Assembly: GCA_964588165.1 (NCBI GenBank)
Contig: CAZPMS010000004.1
Location: 32,019-96,018, forward strand
DNA: 64,000 bases
Direction of reading: 5' to 3'
Source: an uncultured Gammaproteobacteria bacterium
GTDB lineage: Bacteria; Patescibacteriota; Patescibacteriia; UBA1558; UBA10009
Shown here: positions 15,831 to 60,590 of the stretch, one piece after another
Layout of the letters: each line of letters starts with the position of its first letter
Numbering within the stretch: position 1 is the stretch's first letter
Position numbers and translations under genes: made by a program
Notes under the pieces: model-generated
Seen by the model: the letters and a program-made list of their open reading frames with translations, nothing else
Databases searched by the model: none
Told to the model about the DNA's origin: nothing

Positions 15831-15970
15831 AAAAGCCTACCCCTTTTGTCATCCCGACCGAACCCGCCGATTCGGCGGGGAAGCGAAGGGATCCCGTAAT
15901 ATCTAGTACGTGCTAATTTGCAACGGGATTTCTCGGCGGAGCTCGAAATGACAGGTTAAGGTAGGCTTTT
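15831..15970. repeat. Palindromic intergenic element, copy A (~140 bp)
   Basis: Outer inverted repeat AAAAGCCTACC/GGTAGGCTTTT. Inner arms tgtcatcccgaccgaacccgccgattcggcggggaagcgaagggatcccg ... cgggatttctcggcggagctcgaaatgacag. Confidence 0.6.
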
Positions 15971-15976
15971 GTTAGC

Positions 15977-16005
15977 TTGACAAATCCATTTTTTATGTAT
16001 ATAAT
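15977..16005 (+). promoter_or_regulatory. Consensus sigma70 promoter (TTGACA, 17-bp spacer, TATAAT)
   Basis: ttgaca at 15977-15982 and tataat at 16000-16005. Confidence 0.55.
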
Positions 16006-16012
16006 ATTTGGT

Positions 16013-16198
16013 ATTGATGAGGATAGGCTGAAGTTTACACGCAAGGCAACAGAAGTCTACACCCGACAAAATGGGCTTCCAAACTTGCACGTAAATAACT
16101 GGGTTGGACTGAACCCTCGTCCCAGTTGCCTATCCTCTAACTTTAACCACCACGTTCTTTAAATAGATACAAAACAACTTCAAAAAAAGGGAGGGTTT
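16013..16198 (+). ncRNA. Candidate structured 5' leader or small RNA (~185 nt) of a GC-rich cassette, unclassified
   Basis: A 10-bp long-range helix (GAGGATAGGC at 16019-16028 pairs with GCCTATCCTC at 16128-16137) encloses nested hairpins, e.g. AACTGGG...CCCAGTT. Lies downstream of a consensus promoter and upstream of a strong RBS (AGGGAGG). Confidence 0.35.
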
Positions 16199-16282
16199 AT
16201 GCCACGTGCTTCACCCTAAGTTTTCTTCATTTTTCTTGGTTGAGTATTCAACTCATCTTTACCTAAAACCGAGGGTTCAAAT

Positions 16283-16622
16283 GGACGAAAACGTTGCGCA
16301 ATCTCCCCCAAGAGTGGAGACAGGCAGTCTACCTCACTTTACGAGTATTCAAGAAGTTGAGGATGAATATCCAGGGTTCCAAAAAACCGAAGTTGATATC
16401 TTCGGATCATTCACGCCAACTAAGGCTGAGCAGGTACCGCTACAAGGTCAAAGTGCTCAAATCATTGGCTTTGAACTGAACGGAAGCCTCGCTGGCACAA
16501 CAGTCTTTGCATCTTTTGGCTGTCAAAGTGCACATGACAGCCATAAAATTCATGTGTTAACGATGCAAAACTTCCGCAACAGCGGCGAAATTGCTCGGGA
16601 GCTTGAATTGGTTCAGGCTTAG
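16283..16622 (+). CDS. Hypothetical protein in a GC-rich (~47%) cassette. The ORF track starts at 16206; ATG 16283 has a GAGGG RBS.
   Basis: MDENVAQSPPRVETGS... No recognisable domain. Bracketed by a promoter and a terminator. Confidence 0.4.
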
Positions 16623-16642
16623 CAATGAAGTATGAACTCAAA

Positions 16643-16679
16643 AACCGGTTTGCAATATGCAAGCCGGTCTTCTTTTTGC
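16643..16679 (+). terminator. Rho-independent terminator (ACCGGTTTGCA-ATA-TGCAAGCCGGT plus CTTCTTTTT), possibly bidirectional
   Basis: Read directly. It sits between the cassette ORF and the stop of the convergent gene 16688..17707. Confidence 0.6.
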
Positions 16680-16687
16680 TAAATTAT

Positions 16688-17707
16688 TTAATTGCCACAA
16701 TATGAATTAACCTTTTTATATTCTTCAAAATCACCATTAGGAAAAGGTTCAACTATATCTAAACCATTTTCTATTACACAATAAGATTCAGATTCATTGT
16801 CTTGTGCACAAGAGCTGCCTATGTGCCGGCTTGATCCATCTTGAGTATCAGCTATATAAACATTGCCACAGTCAAATTTTTCATCACTTAAAATATTCCT
16901 AACAATGAATTCCTCATCCGCCCATTTTGGATCAGTATTTCCTAAAGTTGTTAATCTTAGATTGCCTTTACAGCTATGGCTACTAAAGCCATCTTTTATG
17001 CAAACTTTATCAGGAGATTCACACCTAGTAAAAACGCAGCCTCGCTCATCATCTAAAGCACTTATATTTAAATTAAAACTGAAACCGCAATTACCATAAA
17101 AATCTTTTGCATTCGCTGCTTCAAACTTAGCCAAAGAGCAATATTTTACCTCGGTTATGCTAGCTTTTTCTACAATAGGTATAGCCAATTTAAAATCCAC
17201 CAATTGTGGATTAATAGTATAAAGAATAACATAAGACCCTAAAGCCAACATTAGGCCCATTATGGCCCCAAATATCGTTTCTTTGGCTGCATTAATTTTA
17301 TCCGGGCTGCCGCCGGAAAACAGCCAAATAAAACCGCCTATGGCTATCATTAAAACGGCTATAATGCCGGCTATGCCCACAAAAAATTTATACAAGGCCG
17401 CAATATATTCTCCTGCTAAATTACCGCTTATATAATTACCTTCATTATCGGTGGTATCAATGGTTAAGGTTTCGCCCCGTTTAAAAATTGACCCCGGAAT
17501 GGTTAAATTGGGCGTAAATTCTGCGGGTTGATTAGAATCAGTGCCAAAAATACTATCCAAAAGCGGTTTAGCAGAAACTTCCTGCAAATTTAAAAAAGAA
17601 AATGACAAGCCAAAAATAACAACTATAAGGATTAAAGAGATAATATACTTTCTTTTTCCGCCAAAGGCGGATCCGCCTTTGGCGGACATATTTTTTGTAT
17701 CATTCAT
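16688..17707 (-). CDS. TrbC/VirB2-like pilin-domain membrane protein with a Cys-rich C-terminal extracellular domain
   Basis: TM1 at residues 22-40. Hydrophobic pair FFVGIAGIIAVLMIAIGGFIWLFSGGSPDKINAAKETIFGAIMGLMLALGSYVILYTI resembles the TrbC/VirB2 core. The C-terminal 170 aa carry about 10 Cys. Confidence 0.45.
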   Translation of the reverse strand: MNDTKNMSAKGGSAFGGKRKYIISLILIVVIFGLSFSFLNLQEVSAKPLLDSIFGTDSNQPAEFTPNLTIPGSIFKRGETLTIDTTDNEGNYISGNLAGEYIAALYKFFVGIAGIIAVLMIAIGGFIWLFSGGSPDKINAAKETIFGAIMGLMLALGSYVILYTINPQLVDFKLAIPIVEKASITEVKYCSLAKFEAANAKDFYGNCGFSFNLNISALDDERGCVFTRCESPDKVCIKDGFSSHSCKGNLRLTTLGNTDPKWADEEFIVRNILSDEKFDCGNVYIADTQDGSSRHIGSSCAQDNESESYCVIENGLDIVEPFPNGDFEEYKKVNSYCGN

Positions 17708-17774
17708 ATCTTTATATTTTTATTTTACCCAACACCACTTTTTTTATCAAGTCTAATAGATGTAAAAGTATTAC

Positions 17775-18461
17775 TTATTCTAAAACTTTTTCCAGTTCGG
17801 CTAAACTTATTAAACCGCTTTTTCTTTGGCCATTAATAAAAAAGTAAGGCGTGCCATCTATTAACAAGCTTTGGCCCTCGTTATAGCCGTCATTTACTAA
17901 AGTCAAGGTTTGCTGTGCCGAATAACATTGGTTAAATTCATTTAAATTCAAATCTAAATTTTCAGCTACGCCCAAATAAAGCTTATCACCTAAGCTTTCT
18001 TGGTTGGCAAAAAGATAAGCGCTGTAATCCCAAAAATTTCCCTGATTTTGGGCGCATCTGGCCGCCACAGCTGCCGAAGTTGCCTGAGGATGTAAAGGGT
18101 TCGCTAAATCTTTCCAAACAATTACAAAATTATTGGGATATTTAGCCACTAAATTCATTAAAACTTCAAAGCTATCAGCGCAATAAGGGCACTGAAAATC
18201 GGCAAACATAACTATTAAATGTTCGGCCTCGGAGCTTCCTAAACGGGGATCGGTAATTTTAAAAACTGGCTCAGATAATGCCGGCTGCTGGGCCTGGAAA
18301 AAAACCCTTTTTAAAGACTCTAAATATTCTTCGCTATCTTTAAGTATATTGATACCGACAAAATACCTTACAATAATCAAAACAACAAAGGCCAAAAGGA
18401 TAGCCAATAATAATTTAAAAATAAGGTTTTCTTGTTTTGAAGATAAGTTGTATTCTGACAT
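17775..18461 (-). CDS. DsbA-like thioredoxin-fold oxidoreductase, membrane anchored
   Basis: N-terminal TM segment and CPYC active site (FADFQCPYCAD). Confidence 0.7.
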   Translation of the reverse strand: MSEYNLSSKQENLIFKLLLAILLAFVVLIIVRYFVGINILKDSEEYLESLKRVFFQAQQPALSEPVFKITDPRLGSSEAEHLIVMFADFQCPYCADSFEVLMNLVAKYPNNFVIVWKDLANPLHPQATSAAVAARCAQNQGNFWDYSAYLFANQESLGDKLYLGVAENLDLNLNEFNQCYSAQQTLTLVNDGYNEGQSLLIDGTPYFFINGQRKSGLISLAELEKVLE

Positions 18462-18521
18462 AATATCGTGTAGCTTGTATCGTGTATCTAGTTAAACGAT
18501 ATACGATAAACAATATGCGAC

Positions 18522-19766
18522 TTATTCTAAATCTATACTTTGTAAATAACCGGTGTAATAATCTTGGAAATATAAAACATCTTCATTTGGAGAAAGAAAA
18601 ACATTAGTGGCAGAATAGCCTATCTGGTCTCCTACTGGCAAAGCTAAAATTGTATTCTGGCCTGTTTGCAAATCTATTTCGTAAAAAGAATCAAAGCTGC
18701 CGGCAGCCAAATCAGGATAAATTCCACTGCCGGTAGGCAGGCTATCAGGCACCCCACAATAAGCTTTATTACCCGCCTCAGAAAAAGTACACTTACTGGG
18801 CCAAGTTTCTAGGCCCAAACTGGCGTTGTTTAAGCCAATCCTATTTCCGCTAGATTCTGCCACCCATAAAGTTGGTTTATAGCCGTTATCTTCATTATAC
18901 ACACTATATAAAAGCTGATTGCCGTCGGGTGTCCACTGGCCCTCAAACCCTCTGCCATAAGTTGTTAAGGATTTAAAATTTTCCTGGTTTTTGCCGATAA
19001 AAATAATCTCTTGGCTATTTGCTCCGGTGTTTTTCCTGAACAAAGCTACAACCTGATTATTGGGAGAAATATTTATATCCACATTGGCAGACTGGTCGCT
19101 TATCCTTTCTATAAACTGAATATTAGTGCCATCACTATCTGCTGTAACTATCCAATTATTTTCTTCTTTGGGGCCTATTACTTCGGCAGCTAAACTATTT
19201 CCGTTGGAGGCAATATCAAAATCCTGAAATTCCTGTGGTAGCGTGTACTGTTTATTTTCGGAAAAATTATAAATAATATTGGAGCCGTCAGGATATTCTA
19301 AAATAGCCATATCAGAATCATTAGACCAAATTATGTTAGATACGGCAAAAAATCTTTGGTCAGCCAGCTTAATAATAGAACCGTCGGCATTCATACGGTA
19401 AAAACGGCCGTCCTGATCATTAAAATAATTAAAGGCTCCATCTGTTGTAATTTTAGGGCTATTTAATTTACTTTTAACAATCGTATTAACCTTGGTATAG
19501 CTGCCATTGGCAGTTTTAGAGACGTCTTCGCCCTCTGGAATACGGCTAATAGAAGGCAAGCTGCCGTTAATATTGGAAATGATTTGATTAATATTTCCTA
19601 TGGTTACTCCGGGCAGTTGGCCGGGATCAAGTGCAGAAGGCGTTACAACAGATGGCCTTTCCGGGGTTATGGGCTTAAAAAATAAATAGTAAATAGCATA
19701 AGCTAAACCAATCACTATTAAAATAAAGGTTACTATAACTATTATTCTTTTTACCTTATCATTCAT
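18522..19766 (-). CDS. Membrane-anchored TolB-like beta-propeller (PD40-type repeats) protein
   Basis: N-terminal TM followed by repeated DGS/DG...I.F motifs (ADGSIIKL, PDGSNIIY, SDGTNIQFI, PDGNQLLYS). Confidence 0.6.
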   Translation of the reverse strand: MNDKVKRIIVIVTFILIVIGLAYAIYYLFFKPITPERPSVVTPSALDPGQLPGVTIGNINQIISNINGSLPSISRIPEGEDVSKTANGSYTKVNTIVKSKLNSPKITTDGAFNYFNDQDGRFYRMNADGSIIKLADQRFFAVSNIIWSNDSDMAILEYPDGSNIIYNFSENKQYTLPQEFQDFDIASNGNSLAAEVIGPKEENNWIVTADSDGTNIQFIERISDQSANVDINISPNNQVVALFRKNTGANSQEIIFIGKNQENFKSLTTYGRGFEGQWTPDGNQLLYSVYNEDNGYKPTLWVAESSGNRIGLNNASLGLETWPSKCTFSEAGNKAYCGVPDSLPTGSGIYPDLAAGSFDSFYEIDLQTGQNTILALPVGDQIGYSATNVFLSPNEDVLYFQDYYTGYLQSIDLE

Positions 19767-19803
19767 ATAAGTTAAATTAAAAAATTAATTCCTCAAAATA
19801 ATT

Positions 19804-20571
19804 TTATTTATATCTTGTTTTATAAACTGATTCTGTATCACTCAAACCCTCTATAGCCTGAAATATAAAAGAGGACGCGATCAGATCATATATATAATAA
19901 ACTAATACCATAAGTATTAAAAATCCTATAAAAAACAAAAAATTTGCAGCAAAAAAACCAATCTTTTGAATTAATATCATTTCACCAAAAATTTTCCTAA
20001 AACCAATCTTATTCATAAAATAATGAAAATTCAAATAAATAATTGCCGGAATGTAATATATTACTGTCCATAACGCCTTAAATGAAATATTTAATACAAC
20101 CCAACTCCAAGAACTTTTAGCAATATCAGATATACTGCCCCCTCTTAATGCTTCAGCAATAGCACCGCCCGCTGCAGATGATTTCGCAATCGAATATTTC
20201 TTTTTAGCCAGTTTCTTTGCTGCTGAATACCCTGCAAGGTTTGAACCTGCAGATCTTAAACCCTTTCCAAGACCCTCTCCTTCTGCCATTTCTCCGGCAG
20301 TTGTCCCAATTGCCTTAGATATATCACCAGTTGAACCGCCAGCGCCATATAAACTTAAACCCAGTTCAGCTGCTTGAGCCAGTCTTTTAATTTTTCTATA
20401 CGTTCTTCTTTTTTTATTTTCATAAATTAAATTGCCATCCTCAACAGCTTTTTTTCCAATCTCTGAAAATCCGTCTGATGTTTTAAAAGAAGGCGAGGGT
20501 GATATATCTTTTTTACTTTTGTTAAACTCTCTTCTATATCTGTTCTCTACTTTTGGTTGTTGAACAGCCAT
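19804..20571 (-). CDS. Hypothetical protein with Gly/Ala-rich middle and C-terminal TM helices
   Basis: ORF with hydrophobic C-terminal segments (FFAANFLFFIGFLILMVLVYYIY). Confidence 0.5.
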   Translation of the reverse strand: MAVQQPKVENRYRREFNKSKKDISPSPSFKTSDGFSEIGKKAVEDGNLIYENKKRRTYRKIKRLAQAAELGLSLYGAGGSTGDISKAIGTTAGEMAEGEGLGKGLRSAGSNLAGYSAAKKLAKKKYSIAKSSAAGGAIAEALRGGSISDIAKSSWSWVVLNISFKALWTVIYYIPAIIYLNFHYFMNKIGFRKIFGEMILIQKIGFFAANFLFFIGFLILMVLVYYIYDLIASSFIFQAIEGLSDTESVYKTRYK

Positions 20572-20581
20572 GTTTATTTAA

Positions 20582-21517
20582 TTAGACTTTAAATCCAATT
20601 TTTCTTAACTTAATTAAATGAATTACTTTCTTATCTAGAAATTTAGTTAAAGCTTTATTTTCTTCTAAAAATCTACCGGCTCTATAAACAGTTGAATAAG
20701 TATCTCTGCTAACTCCCGCCTTTCTCATATAAGCCGCGCCTCTGGTTAACAGTTTAGCTGAGGGCGAGCTAGCCTTGGCAATCTTTTGTATGGCTCCAGC
20801 GCCAACCAGATCAAGCGCCATGAAAGCACCGCCTTCTACGCCATGCATTAATCTTTTCCAGCCCCTTAAATCTTCACCGTCTAAAGTTTTACCTTTCATA
20901 GATTCTGTCATCATTTTAGCCGGCCCTACAATAGGAACCAGATCCAAAGCCCAAGAGCTAAATTTTATAAACTTTTCCCTGCTTTCACTATCTCCTAATG
21001 AAGTAAGGTTGAGTTTTTCCAAAATATCTCCAAATTCTTTTGGAAGATTATCTTTAACCTTCTTAATTAAACCATCTATATTTTCAGCTAAATTATCAGG
21101 AACTTTTCTTACATTTTCTTCAATAATATCATTTATAACTGGAAGCAATTTTTCTTCCAAAACCTCAATTGCCCGTGAAGGAACTTTTTCTTTACCGAAG
21201 CTCAAAAGGTCATCTAATAACCTTTGAGAGACTTCTTTGGAAAGATCATCTAGATTTTCAATTTTTTTTAGCTCGCCAGGTTCATCTTCTGCTTCTACTT
21301 GGATTTCTTTATCAAACTCATTATCATCTTCAACTTCAGCAACTTCTTCAGAAAAATTGCCATTTAATTCAAGTGAGTTCAAATGTTCAACTAATTCATC
21401 ATTTATAGGCTGAGACTCAACTTTGGCTACGTTTTCAAATGAATCCCTGTCCTCCAAATAATTTTCCATTACTAATGTATCTCCCCCCTGATCTAATGAA
21501 TGCGTTTCAAAACCCAT
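20582..21517 (-). CDS. Hypothetical acidic protein
   Basis: 311-aa ORF, Glu/Asp-rich N-half. Lies in the T4SS-like operon. Confidence 0.5.
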   Translation of the reverse strand: MGFETHSLDQGGDTLVMENYLEDRDSFENVAKVESQPINDELVEHLNSLELNGNFSEEVAEVEDDNEFDKEIQVEAEDEPGELKKIENLDDLSKEVSQRLLDDLLSFGKEKVPSRAIEVLEEKLLPVINDIIEENVRKVPDNLAENIDGLIKKVKDNLPKEFGDILEKLNLTSLGDSESREKFIKFSSWALDLVPIVGPAKMMTESMKGKTLDGEDLRGWKRLMHGVEGGAFMALDLVGAGAIQKIAKASSPSAKLLTRGAAYMRKAGVSRDTYSTVYRAGRFLEENKALTKFLDKKVIHLIKLRKIGFKV

Positions 21518-21551
21518 ATTTTTTTATGTTAATTATTATAATAAATTTTTC

Positions 21552-22130
21552 TTATTGCCACTGGGCTGTATCTACCAACCAAGTTTTGCCCGAGCGGATT
21601 AATGATAAAAATATTTTTTGGTAATAAACAAAATCGTCCATGCCTTCTTTGGTTTCTTGCCTTTGCATATTAACCTCTACCTGGCCTGTGCCGGAACTTT
21701 CATCTAAATCTAAAATGGTAACCTTTAAAGCTTTAGAAGTAACGCCGTAAAAATTATCATCAACAGAAGCGGTATCTATAACTTGCTGAAGTTCTGATGA
21801 AAGCTTGGCCGAGGCTAAAAGCTTGGCTTCTTCCAAATTGGTAAAATTACTATCAGTGGAATAACTGCCGTATTTTTCGGAAAAATTCCTGGCCACAACC
21901 GTTAAAGTTTGTTCCACTGCCGAAAGTTGGTTTATTGGCTCTACCGGTTCAAAATCTTTCGCAGACTGCGGCACTTTATTAACTTGATTATCCTTTTGCT
22001 GATTAATATTTAAATTAACCGGCTCTTTGGTAAAAAAATAGCTTTCATCCATTAGTAAAATAGCAATGGCTAAGCCAATAATAACCACTACTACTATTAC
22101 AATTATGGTTTTACTTCTTTTTGATAACAT
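21552..22130 (-). CDS. Hypothetical membrane-anchored protein
   Basis: N-terminal TM (IIVIVVVVIIGLAIAILL). Lies in the T4SS-like operon. Confidence 0.5.
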   Translation of the reverse strand: MLSKRSKTIIVIVVVVIIGLAIAILLMDESYFFTKEPVNLNINQQKDNQVNKVPQSAKDFEPVEPINQLSAVEQTLTVVARNFSEKYGSYSTDSNFTNLEEAKLLASAKLSSELQQVIDTASVDDNFYGVTSKALKVTILDLDESSGTGQVEVNMQRQETKEGMDDFVYYQKIFLSLIRSGKTWLVDTAQWQ

Positions 22131-22144
22131 AAAATTTAATTAAA

Positions 22145-24028
22145 TTATGAAGCGTCTGCCCCTTCGGCTGTCATAGTGGCTTCAAACTCTTTTTTAGAAG
22201 CTTCTATCTCCAGTAGCTGCCTGGGATCCGAAGTTATTATTTGATCCTCGGTATACGAAGCTTTAACTAAAATGGCCACATGCTTTGTGCCGGCAAAAAA
22301 GATACCTTCTCCCACATTGCCTTCCAATAAAAGGTATTTTTCGCCATCCGTTAACATAAAAGTTTTCTGGATCATATCAATAGAGGCCGGCGACTGCCTT
22401 AATAAAAGCTGCAAAGCCGAATTGGTTACAATGGCCTGGCCATAAGGCGACCTTAAAAAATCATTAACATCCTGGGTAATTGTGGTAACTCCTAAATAAT
22501 ACTTCCTGCAACGTTTAACTAGGGCAAAAATAAATTTGGCGCTATCTTCGCGCTGCATCAGCCACCAAGCTTCATCTATAACTAAAATTCTCTTTTTTAA
22601 TTCACTTCTAACGGTTGTCCAAATGTAATTTACAATATTATAAATGGCGATCGGCTTTAACTCATCTTCTAAATCCCTTACCGAAAAAGCTATCAGCTGG
22701 TTTTTAACATCTATATTTGTCGGGCTATTAAACAGGCCGGAAAAAGTGCCTTCGGTATATTTTTTTAATCTTAAAACCAAATCTTCTCCGCCCTCCATGC
22801 CCCCTAAAACTTCCTGGAAATCACTCATTAGCGGCGCCTCTACTTGGGAAAGGTCAGATTCTGAAGTAATATCTTTTTTGGCGTAAGTTTCTAAAAGAGC
22901 CCTATCTATAATGGAATCTTCTTGGTGGGTTAGTTCACCCAGCATCAACCTGATTAAACCTTTTAAAGTTATTACAGCGCTCCTTATAATATCTGCCGGC
23001 CTGGTATCATCGCCAACTCCTTTAGGTAGGTCAAACGGATTCAGTTTGCTTTTAGAATTTAAGGAAATTTTTATATAAGCTCCGCCAACAGCATCAGAAA
23101 GATGCTTATATTCGCTTTCCGGATCAATAATTATAACATCGGTGCCCAACATCATGCTTCTTAAAATTTCCAGTTTAATGGCGTAGCTTTTACCGGCTCC
23201 GGAAGTGGCGAAAACAACTGAATTGGGATTTTGCAGGGTAAATCTGTCAAAAATTATCAAGCTATTATTATGCCGGTTAATGCCGTATAAAATGCCGTCG
23301 TCAGAAGTAAGTTCAGAAGAAATAAATGGAAACGAAGAAGCAATTGGCGAAGAATTCATATTAAATGAAATCTGCAATTCATCATTTCCAAGGGGCAAGC
23401 AGGAGTTAAAGCCTTGCTCCGATTGGTAAAGTGATCTTTTGCTATAAACTAACTTAGAGCCAAAGAGTGATTCAACCTTTTCCGTTAAAAGTTCTAATTC
23501 CTCTTTGCTATCGGCATAAACAGTTAAGTATAAAGCAAATCGGAAAAACTTTTCTGTTCCCTGGGTTAAATCATCCCTTAATTTTTCTATATCCCTTAAG
23601 GCTGTTTCCCGCAGCGGATCTCTGGGGGCGCCCTTTTCGGCGTCGGCCATCAGCTGTGCCTCTAGGCCTCCTACTTTTTTCCTTAACTGTTTTAAAATAA
23701 CATCCGACTTAACAGGATAGAAAAACATAGAAATATCCAAAGGCGAACTGTAATTTACAATTGGGGCAAACCAGCCAACGCTGATATATCTGGGATAATT
23801 TATTACGAATAAAGTGGTTAAAAACTTATTATTTAATTCAATAAACCTAGAATCTATTCTCATTGAAGCAGGAGCAATTAAATCTTTAACCGAGGTAACG
23901 CCTTGGCGATAGCTTTTTTCGGCCTCTAAAACTTCTTTTGATTCTTGGGCTGAAATCTTCTTTTGCGTTTTTGCGCCTTTGCGTTTTTGCGCCTTTGCGT
24001 TTTCTACTTGTGATGGTTTAAATGCCAT
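22145..24028 (-). CDS. virB4: VirB4/TrbE/PrgJ-family type IV secretion ATPase
   Basis: Walker A FATSGAGKSYAI and Walker B VIDEAWWLM (DEAW signature). N-terminal KDLIAPASMRIDSRFIELNNKFLTTLFVINYPR matches the VirB4/PrgJ N-domain. Confidence 0.8.
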   Translation of the reverse strand: MAFKPSQVENAKAQKRKGAKTQKKISAQESKEVLEAEKSYRQGVTSVKDLIAPASMRIDSRFIELNNKFLTTLFVINYPRYISVGWFAPIVNYSSPLDISMFFYPVKSDVILKQLRKKVGGLEAQLMADAEKGAPRDPLRETALRDIEKLRDDLTQGTEKFFRFALYLTVYADSKEELELLTEKVESLFGSKLVYSKRSLYQSEQGFNSCLPLGNDELQISFNMNSSPIASSFPFISSELTSDDGILYGINRHNNSLIIFDRFTLQNPNSVVFATSGAGKSYAIKLEILRSMMLGTDVIIIDPESEYKHLSDAVGGAYIKISLNSKSKLNPFDLPKGVGDDTRPADIIRSAVITLKGLIRLMLGELTHQEDSIIDRALLETYAKKDITSESDLSQVEAPLMSDFQEVLGGMEGGEDLVLRLKKYTEGTFSGLFNSPTNIDVKNQLIAFSVRDLEDELKPIAIYNIVNYIWTTVRSELKKRILVIDEAWWLMQREDSAKFIFALVKRCRKYYLGVTTITQDVNDFLRSPYGQAIVTNSALQLLLRQSPASIDMIQKTFMLTDGEKYLLLEGNVGEGIFFAGTKHVAILVKASYTEDQIITSDPRQLLEIEASKKEFEATMTAEGADAS

Positions 24029-24095
24029 AAATTAGTTATTGGTAACTGGTAATTGGTAACTAGCCTTTAAAAAACTAATTACAAATTTCTGATTA

Positions 24096-24788: not shown

Positions 24789-24901
24789 GATAACTACTAA
24801 TTACTAATATTTGCTAATATACAAATATTTTTTATGTGTAGAATTGATTTCTCATTCGTATATTAGTAACGATTCGTAATTGGTAGATCAGTATTTCGTA
24901 A
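24789..24901. promoter_or_regulatory. Intergenic inverted-repeat motif pair (ACTAATATACAAAT ... ATTCGTATATTAGTAACGATTCGTAAT), shared with the paralog-array intergenic regions
   Basis: The same words recur at 31637-31716, 34844-34956 and 40565-40803. Confidence 0.4.
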
Positions 24902-25363: not shown

Positions 25364-25364
25364 T

Positions 25365-26600: not shown

Positions 26601-26690
26601 CGTTGCCGGAATAATGGGATTCTTCCTGCCTGCTGGCAGGCGGGCGGTTTTGCCTCAGAATGACGTAAAAGGCAAGACTTTGCTACAGTG
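26543..26690. repeat. Palindromic intergenic element, copy C, with embedded sub-palindrome CCTGCCTGCTGGCAGGCGGG
   Basis: Arms tgtcatcctgaacttcagtgaaggatcccatt ... aatgggattcttc[ctgcctgctggcaggcggg]cggttttgcctcagaatgacg. Confidence 0.55.
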
Positions 26691-33234: not shown

Positions 33235-33235
33235 A

Positions 33236-36015: not shown

Positions 36016-36020
36016 AAAGA

Positions 36021-50211: not shown

Positions 50212-50214
50212 TTT

Positions 50215-53200: not shown

Positions 53201-56200
53201 TACTTGTTTGAATCGCAATAGCTGTTGCTGGTAAATGGAGCTTCTGTATCGCAATTTGCCGGGGTATTGCCGTCTGCCGTGGCCTGGCTGCTCCAGTCTA
53301 AACTATTATTACTGGTATCATTAAATAATAAGCAACCAGCTTCTCTGTCTACTACACCATCTTTGCAGGCTTCGCCAACTTCTAATGTATTATTTAAATA
53401 ATAATAAGGTTCACAAACTGAATTATAAATACAATATTCATCACCCTCTTGTACGCTACATGCCCTTACGGCATCAGCATCCGGATGCGTACTACACCTA
53501 TTATCACCGCTTGGGCCAATACAACAATCTTCACCGTCAGGACCTACTGCCGGATCTCCAATATCACAATACCAATCATAGGCTGAATAGTAGATATCTT
53601 CGCCCGGAGCGGCTTGAGTACAGCCTAAGGTATTAAAATCATTGCCTTCTTCCCGGCAAACTTTATGCTGAATGCCATTTATTTCTACTCGGCAATAACT
53701 ATTGGAAATATCCTCACAAATTCCGGTTAAGTTAGATGAAATTGATGAATCACATATTTCTGCACTCTCAAACATAGGTTGTTCCGGGTCTAAATACTCT
53801 GTACAAGTTGATTCTGAAGCAGGGCAAACGCCAACCCAGCCTTCATAATTATACTGCCCCTCTATTGGTAAAAATTTATCATCGTAGCATGGCTCATCAG
53901 TACCTGTCCTTAACCATCTATTACCGCTAAAGTAGCAGGTTCTGCTTTCTTCTTCGCCACCTGCACCAACAGGATCAAAGTAAGCACTTTGGCCGGTAAG
54001 TTCACCTGTAAAAGAAGTGCAGAACAAGGAACTTTCACTGCATAAAGAACTTCCATAATTATCCGGATTATTAATTAAATTAACGGTACCATAACCATCT
54101 ATAAAATTTTCATCTGTATAATCTTCTAGCTGGCGGTTAAATGAAGGTTTGCCTAAACGCTGGCAACCCTGGTTTGAGCCAGAACATTGTTTATCAGGAT
54201 CATTTACTAAATACAATATTTCATCATTAGGCACTTTGGCTACCTCATAATTACATGAATCTCCACCGCCAACATTACACTTAACTTCTCCCCTAATAAT
54301 ACAATCGCCATCAGCATCTATTTGGCCGACTGTATTATTACAAATACCCTGGCCACCAAAGCCATTATCATATACTTTTTCTGATTGGTAATTTGTTGAA
54401 TTCTGGGTGGTTAAATAAGCTTCACAACCAATAGAAGTAGAAGAACAAATAAAGTCAAAAGATTTTAAGTTATAAATTTGGTTCTGCCTATCTAAATATT
54501 GCTGGCAACCAAGTTGAGCGCCATCGCTTGGCGTATCACAAGAATTTGGAGTTTGCCAAGAATTTTCTATCACATAAAAATTATTTGTATATTCCTTGAG
54601 AGTAATATTATCTACAAAAAATGCTTCATTGCCATCTAGGCCGTTAATAATCAATCTTGTTTGGCCATAAGTTCCTACATCGTCAAGCTCTACCGGCCCT
54701 AAGTTATAAAGCCGCCACTCAGAAGTTAAACCATCCAGCTCAAAATTAAGCAAAGTTGTATCGGTTGGATCTGCCGCTTGTGCCTTTTGTCCAAACAAAG
54801 AAGCTAATTTTTGGAAAGGCGTGCTTAGAGTAACAGGTTCCACCTCAAATAAATCCTCTACATCCGCTTTAGTTCCTCCGGGCACATTTCCTTTTTTAGC
54901 CCAGAAAGATAAAACATATTCTTTGCCTGATGATATCTGATTTATTAAATTATTAATTATAGTATCATTGCTTACAAATCCCCTTAAAGAATGGCCTCCC
55001 TGGTAAACTGATTCATTAGAAACAATAATGCCTAAGCTGCCTTCTTCTGTATTTTCCCAGCCTTCAGAAATTCCGCTTTCAAAATTGCTAAAAATTACAT
55101 TGCGGATATTATTACCGTTATTTCCCCTGTATTCCCGGCAACCATTAAATGTGGCTGAACAACTTATGCCTTCGGCAGGGTCGGCATTATAAATTTCACC
55201 CGTAGCTGTTCTACGGTAAGGCCTGCAATCACCAGAGGCAGTAATTGTCCTATCTTGGAGCCTCCAAAAAATATCACCATCGGTATCAAAAAATTCCCGG
55301 CAATTTGGATCGGTTTCTGCTTCTAAAGCAGTGCAGCTGGCTTGGGTTTCTAAAGTATCCTGGCACTCTTCGGTGCCGATTTCTATATTAGTACAAGGGC
55401 CGATATCAATATTACTGGCCAATAAATTCCATTTCTTTAATTGATAACCGCTGGTATCAGAGCCTTCCCATGTAAAGTAGCTTTGGATATTGGAATTATT
55501 TGGTGAAATACACTGCCTTAAATATGTAAAATATTCTATGCCCTCGCCGCCCTGGGCTACCTCATCTAAATTGGTAAACTGCTCACAGCCGGCATCTTGG
55601 ACCGGGCATTCTTGGGCTGTTTGAGGTATAAAGTTTTGGTAAAACGGATCTACGTCTGGATCTTCTACCTTTTCAAAAAAGGTATTAAGCTGCAAATAGC
55701 TATCGTAGCCAACACACTCCACTGGGCAAACATTATCTTGGGTAACTTTAGCTGATATTTCCGGACCGCCGGTTAAAGGAGTATAGCCTTGGCAGCCGAT
55801 TTCATTAGCTTTACAAAAAGTGGCATAATTTTGGCACAAGGCATCGCCGCTTTGGACACAGAAATTAATATCACTGCGCCAATAATGGCCGTCCGCAAAA
55901 CAATCAGCCTTATTAGCTTCTGAATAATCCAATAAAAGATCATTATAGCCTTCGCAAGCTAAATATTCCGGAGCCACTCTTATAAATTGCCTGGCATAGT
56001 TATCATCCTGGCTGTAATCTTGCTGATAGTTATTCGGATCAAAGTTAAAGTTATCTAAATTATGGGCAACTACCGGTGACCCGGTAACTGCCAACTGGAT
56101 ATTATCGTACCAAACAGTACCTGTTTCGCCAGAACCGTCAGTGGTCCGCGGGCCGTTAATTTTTATAACGGCATATTTGGCATTGGCCGGAATTCCGGTT

Positions 56201-58674
56201 ACTTCACCGCTATATACTTCCCAAGAAGTGCTAGGCCATAAACTGGTATTATTATCTTCGTCTAAAATATCACATCTGATACTGCCGGCAATATAATCTT
56301 TATTATTATCGTAGTATCTTAAACACACATCTGTTCTTTGATCGCCACCGGATGATTTAAGATGGCCGCCTAAACTATAACTATAATTCCAGTTAATCGG
56401 TATAAAACCATTGGTCATGGCTCCACATTTTGTATCATCTTCAGTGACTTCAATTTTTAAAGCCGACGAATTTTGATATCCCTCATTTTCAGCCATTGAG
56501 AAAAGGCATTCCGGATCATTTCCTTCCCAAGAAACTCTTTTCCAGTCATCCGGCCAGTCTGTATCACTATCTATGTTTAATTCAAAACTACCATTAAAGG
56601 CGGTATTAATGCCCGGCAACATTCTGGAAAGTTGGCTACAGCCGGCTCCATTAGGCTGGCAACTGGCTGCTTTGGAATTAAGGTAAACTTTATAATCACT
56701 GTTCCATTCAAGCAGCTGGGATTCATCTGATGGTGTTTTATCTTGATAAGTTGAATATCGCCAACAGCCGGCGTCATTAACGCTAGGGCATTCCTGCAGG
56801 GTATCCCTTAAATAGGTAAACTGCTTATCATCTGCCCTGGCAAAGGTTTCACAACTATTATAATAATCCGAGCAACTATCTCCATTAAAACGCCAGATTG
56901 GTTTTTCTTCTAAACAATAACCATAAACACCTTGGCAATTGCCGTCATCATCTTCCTTTAAACAGGTTTGCCAATCGGCACAATATTCATTATCCCTGTT
57001 AACCAATAAAACGGGCTTATCGGGCTTTATTAAATCCAATTCACAGGCCGGACCTTCTATTTCATTATTTTGGGCATCCATGGTTTCTTCTACATTATCT
57101 TCCAGGCAAGCATACTCACTGCTGATAATTTGATAGCCATAACCTTTCCGGGCACACCAACTTTCTGGGGATTTTAAGACCCAGTTAGGATCAACTAAAT
57201 GGTAATAAGGATTAATATCTCCATTACGGCAATCTTCGGGCAAGGAATTATCATTGGGGTTGCTGGGATCTTCGAAACAATGGACCAGATCACTTAAAGT
57301 TTGAGAACTGCCAAAATTTTTAGAATATAAAGCTGCCAGTTCCCAGCCCACCGGAATAATCCGATGCTGACGCATAATAACCAAACTACGGTAAGGATAG
57401 CCCTGCCTATAATCCGGCTGGCTGCCGTCGGCATTAAAGCCTATAATTAAATTTCCATCCAAGTTCCCTCTATCCAAAGCCTCTTTAATGGTGTATCTTT
57501 GTTCAATCGCTGTAACCAATCTGGAAGGAATTACGCAATCGGTGGGCCCTGGGCATTGTTTGGTAGGGTCATCTGCACAAGGCGAATTAGGGCACTGGGT
57601 TAGTTTTTCTAAAATCCTTTCTTGGCCGCTGGTATAGCTTACTTCTGCCAGGCTGGCAAATTGATCGGCTACCGAAAGGCCAGCTTGCTGGCTGACAAAC
57701 CTAAAAGCTATATCTCCTTGAGTTGACCTGCCGCTAGATAAACCATCATCCAATAACTTTTTCATTAATTTTGCCGCTAAAGTATTGGTAAAAATTCCAA
57801 TAGAATCGGCTACAATATCTCCGGTTGGCACATCTTCAGAAATAGGCGCATCCGAAGCCAGTTCCCTGGCATACTGCTCACTAACGGCTGCCGGAGTTTT
57901 TATTAAACCGCTTATGGGCTCGGTAACAGCCTTAAAATTCTGGTTAGCCAGCCTATCAAATAACTGTTTAGTTTCTTCATCTTTAATTCTAGACCTAATG
58001 GATTGATCTAAAGTTAAATAAACGCCCACATCAGATTGCTGGGGCTTAAAAGAATCTCTTAGAGTATCCAAAAACTGCTCATTAGAATAAGTTTGGCCTA
58101 TATTACCGGCCCAGTCGGTCCAGCTTTGGTTCAGTTCATCCAAAGTACACCTGGCTGCTCCCCGGCCGGCCCTTTCTTGAAAAAGTGAATAATGGATGGC
58201 AAAACGCAAATTTAAATCTGGCGGGGTACAAACATTAAATTCAAAAAATCCGTTATCAGAAGCTAAAATATCTAAAGTATCTACTAAAGTGGTTTGATAA
58301 ACATCATCTAAAAAATCGCCCATGTTTTTAACATTAAACAAAGGCGACTGGCCTACATCGCCTTCAGCCAGTTTAGTAGCCGTATCATAAGCCAGCCTAG
58401 AAAGGAAAGTCCTTAAAGCATTTTTATAAGCAATTTTTCCGGCCCGGATAATTACCTTATCTCTTAAAAAATCCCAGGCCTCTTTAATCCAATGGACTTT
58501 TCTATCAGCACTTTCTTCAGCCTCAATAGCTATGTGCTTCCCTTTCAATGCATTAGCCACCGGATCAGTCACTGGAGTTTGAGCCTTAACTTTACTATTA
58601 ACAAAGGGAGTAAAAAAAAGAAAAAGTAAAGAAAATAATATCAAGGAAATAATTGTTTTTTGAAATATTTTCAT
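50215..58674 (-). CDS. Giant (2819 aa) Cys-rich secreted surface protein with several CBM4/9-like jelly-roll modules
   Basis: Signal peptide present. Recurrent NGSFE...W...WYDNI(Q/L)L modules (e.g. NGSFELNIDSDTDWPDDW...TVWYDNIQL, DNGSFENFSGD...TIWYDNILLEP). Very high Cys, Asn and Gly content. Confidence 0.8.
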   Translation of the reverse strand: MKIFQKTIISLILFSLLFLFFTPFVNSKVKAQTPVTDPVANALKGKHIAIEAEESADRKVHWIKEAWDFLRDKVIIRAGKIAYKNALRTFLSRLAYDTATKLAEGDVGQSPLFNVKNMGDFLDDVYQTTLVDTLDILASDNGFFEFNVCTPPDLNLRFAIHYSLFQERAGRGAARCTLDELNQSWTDWAGNIGQTYSNEQFLDTLRDSFKPQQSDVGVYLTLDQSIRSRIKDEETKQLFDRLANQNFKAVTEPISGLIKTPAAVSEQYARELASDAPISEDVPTGDIVADSIGIFTNTLAAKLMKKLLDDGLSSGRSTQGDIAFRFVSQQAGLSVADQFASLAEVSYTSGQERILEKLTQCPNSPCADDPTKQCPGPTDCVIPSRLVTAIEQRYTIKEALDRGNLDGNLIIGFNADGSQPDYRQGYPYRSLVIMRQHRIIPVGWELAALYSKNFGSSQTLSDLVHCFEDPSNPNDNSLPEDCRNGDINPYYHLVDPNWVLKSPESWCARKGYGYQIISSEYACLEDNVEETMDAQNNEIEGPACELDLIKPDKPVLLVNRDNEYCADWQTCLKEDDDGNCQGVYGYCLEEKPIWRFNGDSCSDYYNSCETFARADDKQFTYLRDTLQECPSVNDAGCWRYSTYQDKTPSDESQLLEWNSDYKVYLNSKAASCQPNGAGCSQLSRMLPGINTAFNGSFELNIDSDTDWPDDWKRVSWEGNDPECLFSMAENEGYQNSSALKIEVTEDDTKCGAMTNGFIPINWNYSYSLGGHLKSSGGDQRTDVCLRYYDNNKDYIAGSIRCDILDEDNNTSLWPSTSWEVYSGEVTGIPANAKYAVIKINGPRTTDGSGETGTVWYDNIQLAVTGSPVVAHNLDNFNFDPNNYQQDYSQDDNYARQFIRVAPEYLACEGYNDLLLDYSEANKADCFADGHYWRSDINFCVQSGDALCQNYATFCKANEIGCQGYTPLTGGPEISAKVTQDNVCPVECVGYDSYLQLNTFFEKVEDPDVDPFYQNFIPQTAQECPVQDAGCEQFTNLDEVAQGGEGIEYFTYLRQCISPNNSNIQSYFTWEGSDTSGYQLKKWNLLASNIDIGPCTNIEIGTEECQDTLETQASCTALEAETDPNCREFFDTDGDIFWRLQDRTITASGDCRPYRRTATGEIYNADPAEGISCSATFNGCREYRGNNGNNIRNVIFSNFESGISEGWENTEEGSLGIIVSNESVYQGGHSLRGFVSNDTIINNLINQISSGKEYVLSFWAKKGNVPGGTKADVEDLFEVEPVTLSTPFQKLASLFGQKAQAADPTDTTLLNFELDGLTSEWRLYNLGPVELDDVGTYGQTRLIINGLDGNEAFFVDNITLKEYTNNFYVIENSWQTPNSCDTPSDGAQLGCQQYLDRQNQIYNLKSFDFICSSTSIGCEAYLTTQNSTNYQSEKVYDNGFGGQGICNNTVGQIDADGDCIIRGEVKCNVGGGDSCNYEVAKVPNDEILYLVNDPDKQCSGSNQGCQRLGKPSFNRQLEDYTDENFIDGYGTVNLINNPDNYGSSLCSESSLFCTSFTGELTGQSAYFDPVGAGGEEESRTCYFSGNRWLRTGTDEPCYDDKFLPIEGQYNYEGWVGVCPASESTCTEYLDPEQPMFESAEICDSSISSNLTGICEDISNSYCRVEINGIQHKVCREEGNDFNTLGCTQAAPGEDIYYSAYDWYCDIGDPAVGPDGEDCCIGPSGDNRCSTHPDADAVRACSVQEGDEYCIYNSVCEPYYYLNNTLEVGEACKDGVVDREAGCLLFNDTSNNSLDWSSQATADGNTPANCDTEAPFTSNSYCDSNKYYSVVKDRECSEWLQCGGAIQVSEGEYSCLDLVRCKGLNPENSSECADLVPPTSAPEVQTFDFGTEVDKTRYLSGYSHVGLDWGDGNVIEGYYSPENMQQVGHKVKVDNGSFENFSGDLDSSPNIKNWLANWADSEGINGFYTTRDYCSYSLDTNKVLAGQYSLSITLREEDPDNDQTICPFSSRGGNDNGFYFIDPDSYYSLIHYSLSSNSQIRGAAGLTWFDGNFNQCKDGVSAGSPGYCGISSGGSNVRGIYCNPTSNKCSTSPSHPTSASDWQKGIITFGPEGESHSFKEIPPDAKYVRIDLRNLENDTYPFKGTIWYDNILLEPVLEVNESTLVGKDCRLFPREDSPSCSYQTNQLFNGWNGYCLEPDPYYQNNVSSPDNWQNCLQWYPVDSLSGDMSSIFNIADIGYQDRRPLYYCLQSQGRANYSDNYSDVCQEIPSDVGENGYCGYKWATNIKMAWHDRFSDIVVSVPSHSIFFSDSSPEELWSLNYSEIQAINVLTTFDDSEECYPQFETIYSLLYEPVGNYYYFNWKCMGDGWGRQEGSYGEEGPSGGTRVRVNFDDFGNIETVAYGAADGDNQDDDWGFRLIFYLKDVCTEIVQVVNEEGEEKAWLDRFNYGWSYGSGNELGLTKNMPASVLNSSPYGSFVQPENELPNSWNPSILPLSVFQGGSYNKYYAGFPISTQDTMTIPAATAGRTCISGPALGNECLESDIGDGEDLINDCSTNIEAGICSGIGKFCYNSFNNLTNGQPCSTNNDCVEEAYGTCRGLGNENEEDPNFVLGELQMPIYSGSRGNPGQQDALERIQNLFAKIYGVWQWDGSSYELCNPWPDGTEDCGIASLDQMDISDDPDISTPPAITDLRVDGASDLKAPGGLVYLNFTSSVDPDQMPIEQIYIEWGDETGGIGDLEYGPFIQGNHSFYNYYTCITNTKGDRCIECPGGSLVGDDCVFDAPAVNLVDHWGWCASGDHDNCVTSNLISTGEEIRIRPKD

Positions 58675-58691
58675 TATATTTTTAAAATATA

Positions 58692-59507
58692 TTAACTTTC
58701 AGTTTGCATTTCAGATTTTAATACTTCTCCCCAAACATCAAGCAAATCTTGATCAGTTAAATTATCTAAATCATCTTTATTAAAGCCTTCTTGCAAGAGT
58801 AAGCTTCTTAACTGATCAGGCGTTATTAAATTATAGTTTTCCGGTTGAAGTTCTTGAAAATTCCCGCTACTGCCTTCTACTTCCTGAACGGTTTCTGCAT
58901 AAAGCTGGCTTAAGGTTTCATCGTCAAGGGCATTTACATCATCCTCACTAAAGCCGCTTTGGATTAACAATAAACGAATTTCTGCTGGCGTTAAATCTGC
59001 TTCCAAACCTGGCAACTCTGTTATTTGATCGCCCGGCAATAGCAAACTGCAATCTTGGCCGGTTGGGCAGTTGGGATCATAATTATTTTGGATTTCATCA
59101 AAATCGGTAAAGCCGTCGGAATCTGAATCAGGCAAATAAGGCGAAGTTTGATAAAGGTATAATTCATCATAATCAGAAAGGCCGTCTAGATCTGTATCTT
59201 TTTGCTGAAGCTCCAATAAATTTGCTACATCATTTTCTGCTAAATTAAAGTTGGCGTTAAGCTCTTGAATATCGCCTTCTTTGGCAAAAGGAACTTTTAA
59301 AGAATTTAACCAGCCGTTAACCGAAAAAAATAAGCCAACTACCGAAATTATTACAATTAAAAATAGGGCTATTTTAGGACTAGATTCTTTTTTTTTGACC
59401 TCCTCTTTGGTTTCTTCAAAAATCTCTTTATCTGTTAAAACTTCTTTTTCTTGATCCAAATTTTCCATAAAATTTATACTAAAACAACAGACATAATAAT
59501 TGTTCAA
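58692..59507 (-). CDS. Membrane-anchored protein with thrombospondin-type-3/dockerin-like Ca-binding Asp repeats and a duplicated ~32-aa C-terminal motif
   Basis: TM segment (IALFLIVIISVVGLFF). DTDLDGLSDYDE...DSDSDGFTDFDE. Tandem repeats TPAEIRLLLIQSGFSEDDVNALDDETL and TPDQLRSLLLQEGFNKDDLDNLTDQDL. Confidence 0.6.
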   Translation of the reverse strand: MNNYYVCCFSINFMENLDQEKEVLTDKEIFEETKEEVKKKESSPKIALFLIVIISVVGLFFSVNGWLNSLKVPFAKEGDIQELNANFNLAENDVANLLELQQKDTDLDGLSDYDELYLYQTSPYLPDSDSDGFTDFDEIQNNYDPNCPTGQDCSLLLPGDQITELPGLEADLTPAEIRLLLIQSGFSEDDVNALDDETLSQLYAETVQEVEGSSGNFQELQPENYNLITPDQLRSLLLQEGFNKDDLDNLTDQDLLDVWGEVLKSEMQTES

Positions 59508-59621
59508 AAAGGCGTCTGGATTAGTTAATTATATCAGATTTTTCTCTTTTTCGTCAATGAAATCAGGTGGTAGAAAGTAGGTTGTAGTAAGTAGAAAAAG
59601 CGAATTACTACCAACTACAAC

Positions 59622-60458
59622 CTACTCACTAATTTCTGCGAATTCAATGGACAAACTTAACCAATCTTTCACTGATAATTCTTGGGCCCTGGCAACGGGC
59701 TTAATTCCTGATTTTTCTATGATTTTCTTAGTTTTTTCTTTGGAAAAATGGAAGCTATTGGCTAAATTATTTTCTATGGTTTTTCTTTTTGAACAAAAAC
59801 CTGCCCTTACCATCTGCCAATACTTTTTTTCTTCAATTTCTTCTGAAAACGGAAAATCTATAATATTTTTAAAATGAATAATAGCCGATTCCACATTTGG
59901 TGCCGGATAAAATGACTCGTGGCCCACATCAGCTATAATTTCGGGCTGGCAATAAAGTTGAACCGAAACACTAAGCAAACTCATCTCGCCAACTGGAGCA
60001 CAAATTCTTTCGGCAACTTCTTTCTGTAATAAAAGAGTGATTGATTGAGGCTTTTTTTCTGCTGTTAAAAACTTCTTTAAAAAGGCCGATGAAATACCAT
60101 AGGGAAGGTTTGATACTATTTTATAATTGGTTATTGGTAATTGGTTATTGGTAATTTTTAATATATCTTTATTTACGACTTTTAAATTATCAACTACTTC
60201 TGATAAATTTTTTAGATTTGCAAAAAGCTTTTTATCCAGCTCCACCGCAATTACTTTCCTGGCCAATTTAACCAGCTCTTGGGTTAAAAAGCCAAAACCC
60301 GGACCCACTTCTAAAACTGTGTCTGATTTTTTAATTCCGGCTGTTTTAACCATCTGGCTTAAAACGTTTTCATCTATACAAAAATTCTGACCTTTTAGTT
60401 TATCCGGAGTAAGGCCGGTTTTTTTGATAAGATACTTTGTCTGTTCGAGTAAATCCAT
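59622..60458 (-). CDS. rsmA: 16S rRNA (adenine1518/1519-N6)-dimethyltransferase RsmA/KsgA, with a short in-frame tandem duplication (ITNNQLPITNY)
   Basis: LEVGPGFGFLT SAM motif and NLPYGIS motif IV. The 14-bp unit ttggttattggtaa is duplicated at 60130-60157. Confidence 0.85.
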   Translation of the reverse strand: MDLLEQTKYLIKKTGLTPDKLKGQNFCIDENVLSQMVKTAGIKKSDTVLEVGPGFGFLTQELVKLARKVIAVELDKKLFANLKNLSEVVDNLKVVNKDILKITNNQLPITNYKIVSNLPYGISSAFLKKFLTAEKKPQSITLLLQKEVAERICAPVGEMSLLSVSVQLYCQPEIIADVGHESFYPAPNVESAIIHFKNIIDFPFSEEIEEKKYWQMVRAGFCSKRKTIENNLANSFHFSKEKTKKIIEKSGIKPVARAQELSVKDWLSLSIEFAEISE

Positions 60459-60470
60459 AGTATAAATTAT

Positions 60471-60590
60471 ATGGAAAAATTTTGCCTATCCTGTCATCCT
60501 GAGCTTGTCGAAGGATCCCGTATTACCCGAAACATACTATATTAAACGGGATCTCTCCATTACAGTCGAGATGACAATCGTGGAAAAATT
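60471..60590. repeat. Palindromic intergenic element, copy E. Its right arm encodes the last 7 codons of tsaC.
   Basis: Flanks GGAAAAATTTTGCC / GGAAAAATTTTTCC. Arms ctgtcatcctgagcttgtcgaaggatcccg ... cgggatctctccattacagtcgagatgaca. Confidence 0.55.

Follow-up and report, generated by a model that had tools for sequence, protein, structure and literature searches.

A 64,000-nt stretch of DNA from an uncultured bacterium of the GTDB lineage Patescibacteriota (Patescibacteriia, UBA1558, UBA10009; assembly GCA_964588165.1, contig CAZPMS010000004.1, positions 32,019–96,018 of the forward strand), hereafter the window, contains five copies of a short, imperfectly palindromic element, most of them lying between genes. 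The locus raises the question of what kind of DNA these elements represent. The first-pass annotation had found them reminiscent of MITEs (miniature transposable elements with inverted repeats), of repetitive extragenic palindromic (REP) elements or of attC-like recombination sites. Our analysis favours, with a probability that we put at roughly three in four, the reading that they are heads-out doublets (HH dimers, similar to REPINs) of CGTC/TGTC-tagged REP units and represent selfish, non-autonomous DNA. The occurrence of such doublets in bacteria of the Candidate Phyla Radiation (CPR) and in far more phyla than reported, the turnover of their arms at orthologous sites and the presence of a nested 20-nt palindrome in some copies are new observations.

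Doublets of a single hairpin unit

When the sequence of all five places was read, the elements were found to stand where the first-pass annotation had put them, and its copy letters A–E are retained here. The places were correct, but the intervals were wider than the cores, defined here as running from (C/T)GTCAT to ATGAC(A/G), since outer inverted repeats had been included. A two-arm pattern (a whole arm, the spacer and the beginning of the other arm) had seven matches in the window and none in 100 dinucleotide-preserving shuffles of it, and a relaxed single-arm scan detected exactly ten arms, which make up the five doublets, and none besides. A sixth doublet of the same organism, copy F, is located ~9 kb past the window end (locus L001, 1012–1099; L numbers denote the further loci analysed), giving six doublets in the ~71 kb of DNA read from this organism. 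The shuffling result, the ten-arm scan and copy F together indicate that the doublet family is real and is not confined to the window, a restriction that had been named beforehand as speaking against such a family. All six copies are HH dimers with spacers of 27–29 nt.

None of the copies is assigned a strand. Copy A (15831–15970; core 15847–15953) has a 29-nt spacer and an outer stem formed by AAAAGCCTACC (15831–15841) and GGTAGGCTTTT (15960–15970); its left arm (ATCCC/GGGAT) carries the accessory hairpin CCCGCCGATTCGGCGGG, and its right arm is ATTTC/GAAAT. Copy B (27711–27850; core 27730–27833), with the outer stem AAAAAGCTTTA paired with TAAAGCTTTTT, consists of a left arm of ATCTC/GAGAT with a CCCGCC...GGCGGG hairpin and a right arm of ATCCT/AGGAT. 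In copy C (26544–26676; core 26559–26665), where GGCCTTGCCT pairs with AGGCAAG, the left arm is ATCCT/AGGAT, and the right arm (ATTCT/AGAAT) contains a diverged form of the 20-nt palindrome and a second small GC hairpin. Copy D (45241–45372; core 45254–45359; outer stem ATTTTCCTC paired with GAGGAAAAT) combines a left arm of ATTCT/AGAAT with a right arm of ATCCT/AGGAT that contains the exact palindrome. Copy E (60473–60595; core 60492–60576; outer stem GGAAAAATTTT paired with AAAATTTTTCC) has the arms ATCCT/AGGAT and ATCTC/GAGAT and no accessory hairpin. As the first-pass annotation had observed, A and B are alike and have mutually inverted centres: their left arms are 94% identical over 51 nt, and the spacer of B is inverted relative to that of A (84% complementary over 31 nt). 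The same spacer inversion distinguishes C from D. An inversion between inner repeats, an independent exchange of single arms between copies and the insertion of heterodimers either way round are all possible origins of this flip, and two doublets in L263 provide an example of heterodimers in either orientation.

Read from its outer end inwards, an arm consists of an unpaired head, YGTC; a 5-bp stem, AT-NNN/N'N'N'-AT; a tandem G·A/A·G pair, formed by a GA that is invariant on each arm side and set in a Y-GA-R context; two inner pairs, which covary (GC/GC, AC/GT, CC/GG and GG/CC); an apex; and a CCC tail. The apex is either a loop of 3–5 nt, often of the GCGAAGC type, or a longer GC-rich hairpin. 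Simple arms, such as GAGCGAAGCGA, have nine stem positions (five Watson–Crick, the tandem G·A and two Watson–Crick) closed by the 3–5 nt loop, and accessory hairpins of 17–30 nt are present in four of the ten window arms. The heads of the window arms are TGTC in eight cases and CGTC in two; among 281 arms from many phyla, TGTC (197) and CGTC (59) are followed by GGTC (22) and AGTC (3). The first two stem pairs are A-T and T-A in all ten window arms, and the 5-bp stem is perfect in 266 of the 281 arms, with six sequence variants. The tail of 263 of these arms is CCC followed by G, T, C or A, and that of the rest is CTC. Past Y(-1)/R(+1), the positions just before GTC and just after GAC, sequence conservation breaks off abruptly.

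In a set of 100 doublets, with spacers of 16–43 nt (mode 25–32), each arm's own stem is perfect in 92–97%, whereas the two arms are complementary to each other in only ~50%. The arms within one copy are usually unlike each other, and each is still self-complementary. Therefore, the conserved unit is the single arm hairpin, and the hairpin that a whole doublet can form is secondary. The functional unit is the single arm, two of which, inverted around a spacer of ~28 nt, make up the doublet.

The five copies, folded as single-stranded DNA, gave z-scores of -2.7 to -4.6. Such stable folds, and the strong covariation both of the arm stems and of the two inner pairs past the G·A, could also point to a family of structured RNAs, either small RNA genes or cis-acting regulators, that fold into several branches (an outer stem and three hairpins). 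We consider this very unlikely, because the element is symmetric, with the same motifs on both strands, because the copies have no fixed orientation towards genes and one of them extends into a coding end, and because they have no associated promoter. Hairpin-templated repair can, moreover, produce covariation in DNA palindromes. A search of the window against Rfam gave nothing at the gathering threshold, and a relaxed E-value threshold applied to four loci yielded only chance matches to microRNA-like hairpins.

Relation to CGTC-tagged REPs and distribution across phyla

The resemblance to REP elements proposed by the first-pass annotation has thus become more precise: the arms fit published CGTC-tagged REP units arranged as heads-out dimers, and the classification as CGTC-tagged REPs is well supported, the likeness being judged from the published text description. 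In the descriptive text of Di Nocera, De Gregorio and Rocco (2013; PMC3733652), these REPs come from five phyla, fall into four families (CGTC-1 to CGTC-4) and belong to a superfamily that takes in Neisseria dRS3 and Rickettsia RPE-4 and RPE-6. As described there, the unit has an unpaired CGTC, often TGTC or CCTC, a stem of 8–9 bp that begins with A-T, a loop of 4–5 nt and a short unpaired tail with the consensus CCA. The units mostly form HH dimers with the tag outside, with spacers of 20–100 bp and frequent heterodimers; the dimers lie 3' of genes, sometimes overlapping them, some are found within larger palindromes, and that text gives no dedicated transposase for them.

The elements of the window share with the units so described the YGTC head, the A-T/T-A start of the stem, the C-rich tail, the arrangement as HH dimers including heterodimers, spacers within the published range, the location after genes with an occasional overlap of a gene end, the occurrence of larger palindromes and the lack of an adjacent transposase. 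They differ from that description in being found also in Patescibacteria and in many phyla beyond the five, in having five Watson–Crick pairs, a tandem G·A and two pairs in place of a stem of 8–9 bp, and in an apex that often bears long accessory hairpins, including the separate 20-nt palindrome. Intergenic repeats identical to the left arm of E (ATCCTGAGCTTGTCGAAGGAT) are carried by alphaproteobacterial megaplasmids, namely those of Methylobacterium, Microvirga, Rhizobium and Novosphingobium, all of which are host groups named in the same text (PMC3733652).

The elements also resemble REPINs and the GTAG REPs associated with REP-associated tyrosine transposases (RAYTs), such as the bacterial interspersed mosaic elements (BIMEs) of Escherichia coli and the REPINs of Pseudomonas: the unit is a hairpin with four unpaired nucleotides at its base, inverted doublets are foldable into one long hairpin, alternating tandem arrays occur, and the sequences are homogeneous within a genome and different between lineages. 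In contrast to these, the head is YGTC and not GTAG or GTGG, and no RAYT gene was found beside any copy; no Y1_Tnp-like (RAYT) gene was detected in the window or near the other copies examined. The array in question (L054, 5372–5816; Clostridiales metagenome-assembled genome (MAG) SUG1050) comprises at least three doublets with a period of 125 nt and the same 37-nt linker per unit, and resembles a BIME-type cluster. Rickettsia palindromic elements (RPEs) are similar in entering coding regions without destroying them, as E does in rewriting the last codons of tsaC, but RPE-1 is longer, different in sequence and typically in-frame inside genes, whereas five of the six copies described here are intergenic. 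The ATTGC-type arms of a related lineage, described below, presumably resemble rickettsial repeats. A literature search for 'palindromic elements' in the CPR found no paper, and arm sequences used as search strings returned only primers.

A scan with the two-arm pattern over one genome per species, in which about two chance matches are estimated, returned at least 120 stretches from more than ten phyla. Among the matches listed are Patescibacteria of several classes, Chloroflexota, Acidobacteriota, Verrucomicrobiota, Gemmatimonadota, Armatimonadota, Clostridia, Bacteroidota and Gammaproteobacteria. In addition, 11 stretches of a viral collection match the pattern. Other repeats were seen at some of the loci: tandem CGTCATT heptamers ('gtcattcgtcattcg') occur in Acidobacteriota and Verrucomicrobiota, in the flanks of doublets in L085, L102 and L105, and motifs of the ATTCGCGAAT/ATTAGTGAA type stand in place of doublets downstream of the PPDK_N gene in two CPR relatives (L129 and L132).

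Orthologous sites, gene context and mobility

The contigs of the window organism are of metagenomic origin, and the named lineages closest to it are Komeilibacteria and other Patescibacteria. Relatives of the window were gathered through the PPDK_N-domain protein encoded between B and C, which yielded 80 loci of 462 kb in total. Only three doublets were found in them, and the window organism is therefore comparatively rich in doublets. The site of C is empty in L127, L128, L133 and L134, where the two genes lie 2–10 nt apart, is occupied by doublets in L136 and L184, and contains plain hairpin terminators (L130/131, L138 and L142) or unrelated repeats in other relatives. A doublet is present at the site of B in L135. 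At the site of E, tsaC and ksgA overlap without an element in L259–L262 (TAATG or ATGA), and a doublet is present in L263, a Komeilibacteria MAG. The orthologous copies (window C and L136, window B and L135, window E and L263) have flanks and outer stems in common within each pair. In their arms, however, they are different throughout: ATTGC/GCAAT is the type of every one of the eight arms in L135, L136 and L263, and ATYYY/RRRAT that of every one of the twelve in the window organism. Thus, the site is inherited and the arms are homogenised within each genome, the copies persisting at the same sites for long periods. Such homogenisation is the pattern of REPs that co-evolve with a cognate enzyme; gene conversion can also produce it.

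An outer inverted repeat of 7–11 nt, bordered by A- and T-runs and varying from copy to copy, encloses each of the six copies of the window organism. Of 98 doublets from other phyla, 19 have an inverted repeat of at least 7 nt in their flanks, as compared with 2 of 98 mismatched controls. The idea that the outer stems are older terminator hairpins with invaded loops was not supported as a general rule, because empty hairpins with the same outer stem were not found, GGCCTTGCC/GGCAAGGCC is present as a stem at another locus, in L263, the paralogues D and F have a common outer stem and flanks, and the left half of the outer stem of E is conserved tsaC coding sequence (RKGKI). In some subfamilies, the outer shell seems to belong to the repeated unit, as the text of PMC3733652 likewise reports for CGTC-1 dimers of Halothiobacillus.

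A, C, D and E are placed 3' of gene ends. C is placed in the interval between the PPDK_N-domain gene's stop codon (26683) and the next gene's true ATG (26531). Its left arm had been thought to provide the start of that gene, but the TTG at 26600 is an artefact of taking the longest open reading frame (ORF), and homologues give the ATG at 26531 (MSDLNQQSN). D directly follows a GIY-YIG pseudogene and precedes efp by 22 nt; this second small GIY-YIG gene (44950–45240) has an in-frame TAA (…REK*IKGW…), at which its gene calls in other assemblies stop (68 aa), and ends exactly where the outer stem of D begins. E is inserted between tsaC and ksgA, which abut in relatives; tsaC reads into the right arm of E and takes its final codons and its stop from it (...PRLSSRL*), as had been noticed from the window itself. 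B is located between promoters that diverge from each other, TTGACT-17-TATGAT (plus strand) and, for the PPDK_N gene, TATGGTATAAT (minus strand), and a TTGACA-17-TATAAT promoter motif begins six bases after A.

Several of these features recommend the view that the elements are intergenic hairpins selected by the host as intrinsic terminators, insulators or mRNA-stabilising structures, their repetition reflecting function and not mobility. The outer stems have A- and T-runs in every copy of the organism, four of the copies (A, C, D and E) come after gene ends, the site of C is taken by plain hairpin terminators in L130/131, L138 and L142, and orthologous copies have been kept across lineages of 63–78% protein identity. 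Nevertheless, we regard a host function as an unlikely origin. A terminator is needless between the divergent promoters at B, E split overlapping and probably translationally coupled genes, and close relatives manage without the elements. Furthermore, a terminator does not need the conservation of YGTCAT, the G·A and ATCCC over more than ten phyla, in which flanking inverted repeats are found in the minority of doublets given above. Since the copies lie between genes and form large hairpins by T-runs, the doublets probably also act as terminator or insulator structures, as a side effect.

The first-pass annotation also saw the elements as bordering foreign GC-rich cassettes, next to A and B, a placement that it compared with, among others, attC-like recombination sites; as such, the elements would bound integron-type cassettes. 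The elements are indeed imperfect palindromes, and two small GC-richer genes stand beside them. The ORF adjacent to B (28019–28735), which has no Pfam match, has a GC content of 47.6%, as compared with ~35% for the window. However, its homologue in L135 (345–1085, minus strand) has the same divergent position by the B-site doublet and shares the motifs SHGG and FGGML.TGE, so that this ORF is not a cassette brought in with B; no similarity was found to the ORF in the same position in L127. The element ends are YGTCAT/ATGACR and not the attC core sites RYYYAAC/GTTRRRY, no integrase was found, the neighbours are ordinary genes with sigma-70-type promoters of their own, and most copies are not beside any cassette. 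We give this explanation practically no weight. In the region beside A (15977–16680), the consensus promoter TTGACA-17-TATAAT precedes a leader of ~120 nt closed by a long-range stem (GAGGATAGGC...GCCTATCCTC, ~16020–16139), followed by a small ORF ending at 16622 and a hairpin terminator at 16640–16678. The region has no Pfam or Rfam match and could be a structured leader or a small RNA.

The comparison with MITEs held only in part. The elements are short, non-coding, repeated and intergenic, have inverted ends and vary in presence among relatives. A classical MITE, that is, a deletion derivative of an insertion sequence (IS) moved by a DDE transposase through its terminal inverted repeats, is nevertheless highly improbable. 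A target-site duplication, one of the checks that had been suggested, was not found: flank conservation ends at -1/+1, and direct repeats are at the background level except in tandem arrays. No transposase or integrase has a Pfam match in the window, no related IS or transposase was found, and clustering of the neighbouring proteins at ~130 loci revealed no protein family recurring next to doublets. Each apparent terminal repeat is a covarying hairpin, and single arms and tandem arrays exist, which is the behaviour of REPs and not of terminal inverted repeats. A REPtron-like gene between paired doublets was also considered and rejected, because L043 holds an ordinary ABC permease between them and L054 is a tandem array by ordinary genes.

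By analogy with RAYT/IS200-type enzymes acting on GTAG REPs, an enzyme encoded at another place in the genome would recognise the arm of these selfish, non-autonomous doublets in its folded, single-stranded form, and such an enzyme may occasionally copy or replace units. Terminator or insulator action would then be a by-product and not the origin of the elements. Several points weigh against the interpretation as selfish CGTC-tagged REP dimers. Movement is deduced from presence and absence among relatives, and the retention of orthologous copies at 63–78% protein identity fits host function as well as selfish persistence. Covariation in a DNA palindrome can stem from template-switch repair instead of selection. 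Finally, the 5+2+2 stem with its G·A pairs and the long accessory hairpins (4 of 10 arms) exceed the stem of 8–9 bp and the loop of 4–5 nt given in the published description.

The nested palindrome and other features of the window

The 20-nt palindrome CCTGCCTGCCGGCAGGCAGG, for which no strand is assigned, occurs as a free-standing exact copy at 12459–12478 and as an exact copy within D at 45318–45337. The third place indicated by the first-pass annotation, in C (26625–26644), holds a diverged form. The proposal that the palindrome is mobile gained support from the paralogue F, which lacks exactly those 20 nt present in D; D itself is base-identical in four independent assemblies. The palindrome is a distinct insertion, smaller in size, that sits within the apex of certain arms, as in D and L170, with a variant in L218. 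The exact 20-mer was also found in three CPR relatives and in 35 stretches of the viral collection. It is unchanged in 44 distinct contexts with unrelated flanks and host GC contents of 0.36–0.68. None of 50,697 isolate phage records contains an exact copy, plasmids gave only partial GC-rich matches, and no description of the palindrome was found in the literature searched. Adjacent direct repeats of at least 7 nt accompany only 3 of the 44 copies, all in repetitive flanks, and a comparison of ORFs spanning the palindrome was uninformative in GC-rich contigs.

Several copies are associated with tRNA genes. The copy at 12459 interrupts a duplication of the 5' end of tRNA-Ser(gct). A GIY-YIG ORF (12055–12414, minus strand) runs into this tRNA gene, ~22 nt of whose 5' end are repeated upstream of the ORF (12449–12492) and split there by the palindrome, and positions 12055–12500 have the appearance of a small mobile cassette that entered at a tRNA gene. 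L240 has the same layout of a 5' tRNA part, the palindrome and a GIY-YIG gene, the palindrome being in the tRNA D-loop, and in both the window and L240 the palindrome adjoins a small GIY-YIG gene. The palindrome also lies in a duplicated 5' tRNA fragment in L198. In two IMG/VR contigs (L233, 2239–2330; L210, ~8570–8660), the palindrome lies exactly in the variable loop of tRNA-Met(CAT) (…CACGAGG|PAL|TC…). ARAGORN still calls the tRNA-Met of L233, as a 92-nt tRNA with a long extra arm, and does not call the copy in L210. Loops may be the only places that tolerate the palindrome, or they may be its targets.

Organelle genomes are known to carry GC clusters and other small palindromic insertions. 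These are similar in being very short, GC-rich palindromes inserted discretely into many unrelated AT- or GC-rich contexts. The 20-nt palindrome differs in residing in bacterial and phage-like contigs, in the lack of a consistent target duplication and in its identity across hosts of 36–68% GC. The spread of the palindrome and its landing in foldable loops, together with the genome-wise replacement of arms (ATTGC versus ATYYY), would point to an enzyme system that reads and rewrites DNA hairpins. We tentatively raise the possibility, which we consider doubtful at present, that the palindrome is an autonomous, ultra-small mobile insertion and that this insertion and the replacement of arms are due to an undiscovered, trans-acting system of this kind, common to distant phyla including the CPR.

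Apart from these elements, positions 30095–42279 (minus strand), together with 26683–27651, contain eight tandem paralogous genes of ~350–535 aa beside a separate PPDK_N (ATP-binding) gene. The three genes of this row that were tested each end in a PEP-utilizers mobile domain, and motifs of the ATTTGTATATTAGTAC/TACTAATTACTAAT type, facing either way, recur in the intergenic regions of the row. Positions 16688–25363 hold a conjugation/type IV secretion-like cluster, as is typical for CPR genomes, which includes a T4SS (type IV secretion system) pilin family protein (16688–17707), a TraG P-loop ATPase (22145–24028) and a PrgI family protein (24902–25363). The window also encodes a HINT-domain protein (2030–4567) and a 2,819-aa protein without domain matches (50215–58674). 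ARAGORN identified a tRNA-Arg with the anticodon GCG at 13125–13201; this tRNA is uncommon in bacteria, in which CGN codons are usually decoded by ACG (inosine).

These findings are of practical importance for annotation, which the elements mislead by creating false ORF starts (TTG 26600), rewritten gene ends (tsaC) and spurious small proteins. If confirmed in isolate genomes, the 20-nt palindrome would be among the smallest discrete insertions known, and it can give a tRNA-Met a long extra arm. The wholesale swap of arms with retained outer stems offers a handle on the partner of the doublets, which would be a protein whose variants track the arm type. Because the same unit of head, G·A motif and tail is present in the CPR and in more than ten phyla, the missing enzyme partner of these REPs is a broad question and not an alphaproteobacterial curiosity.

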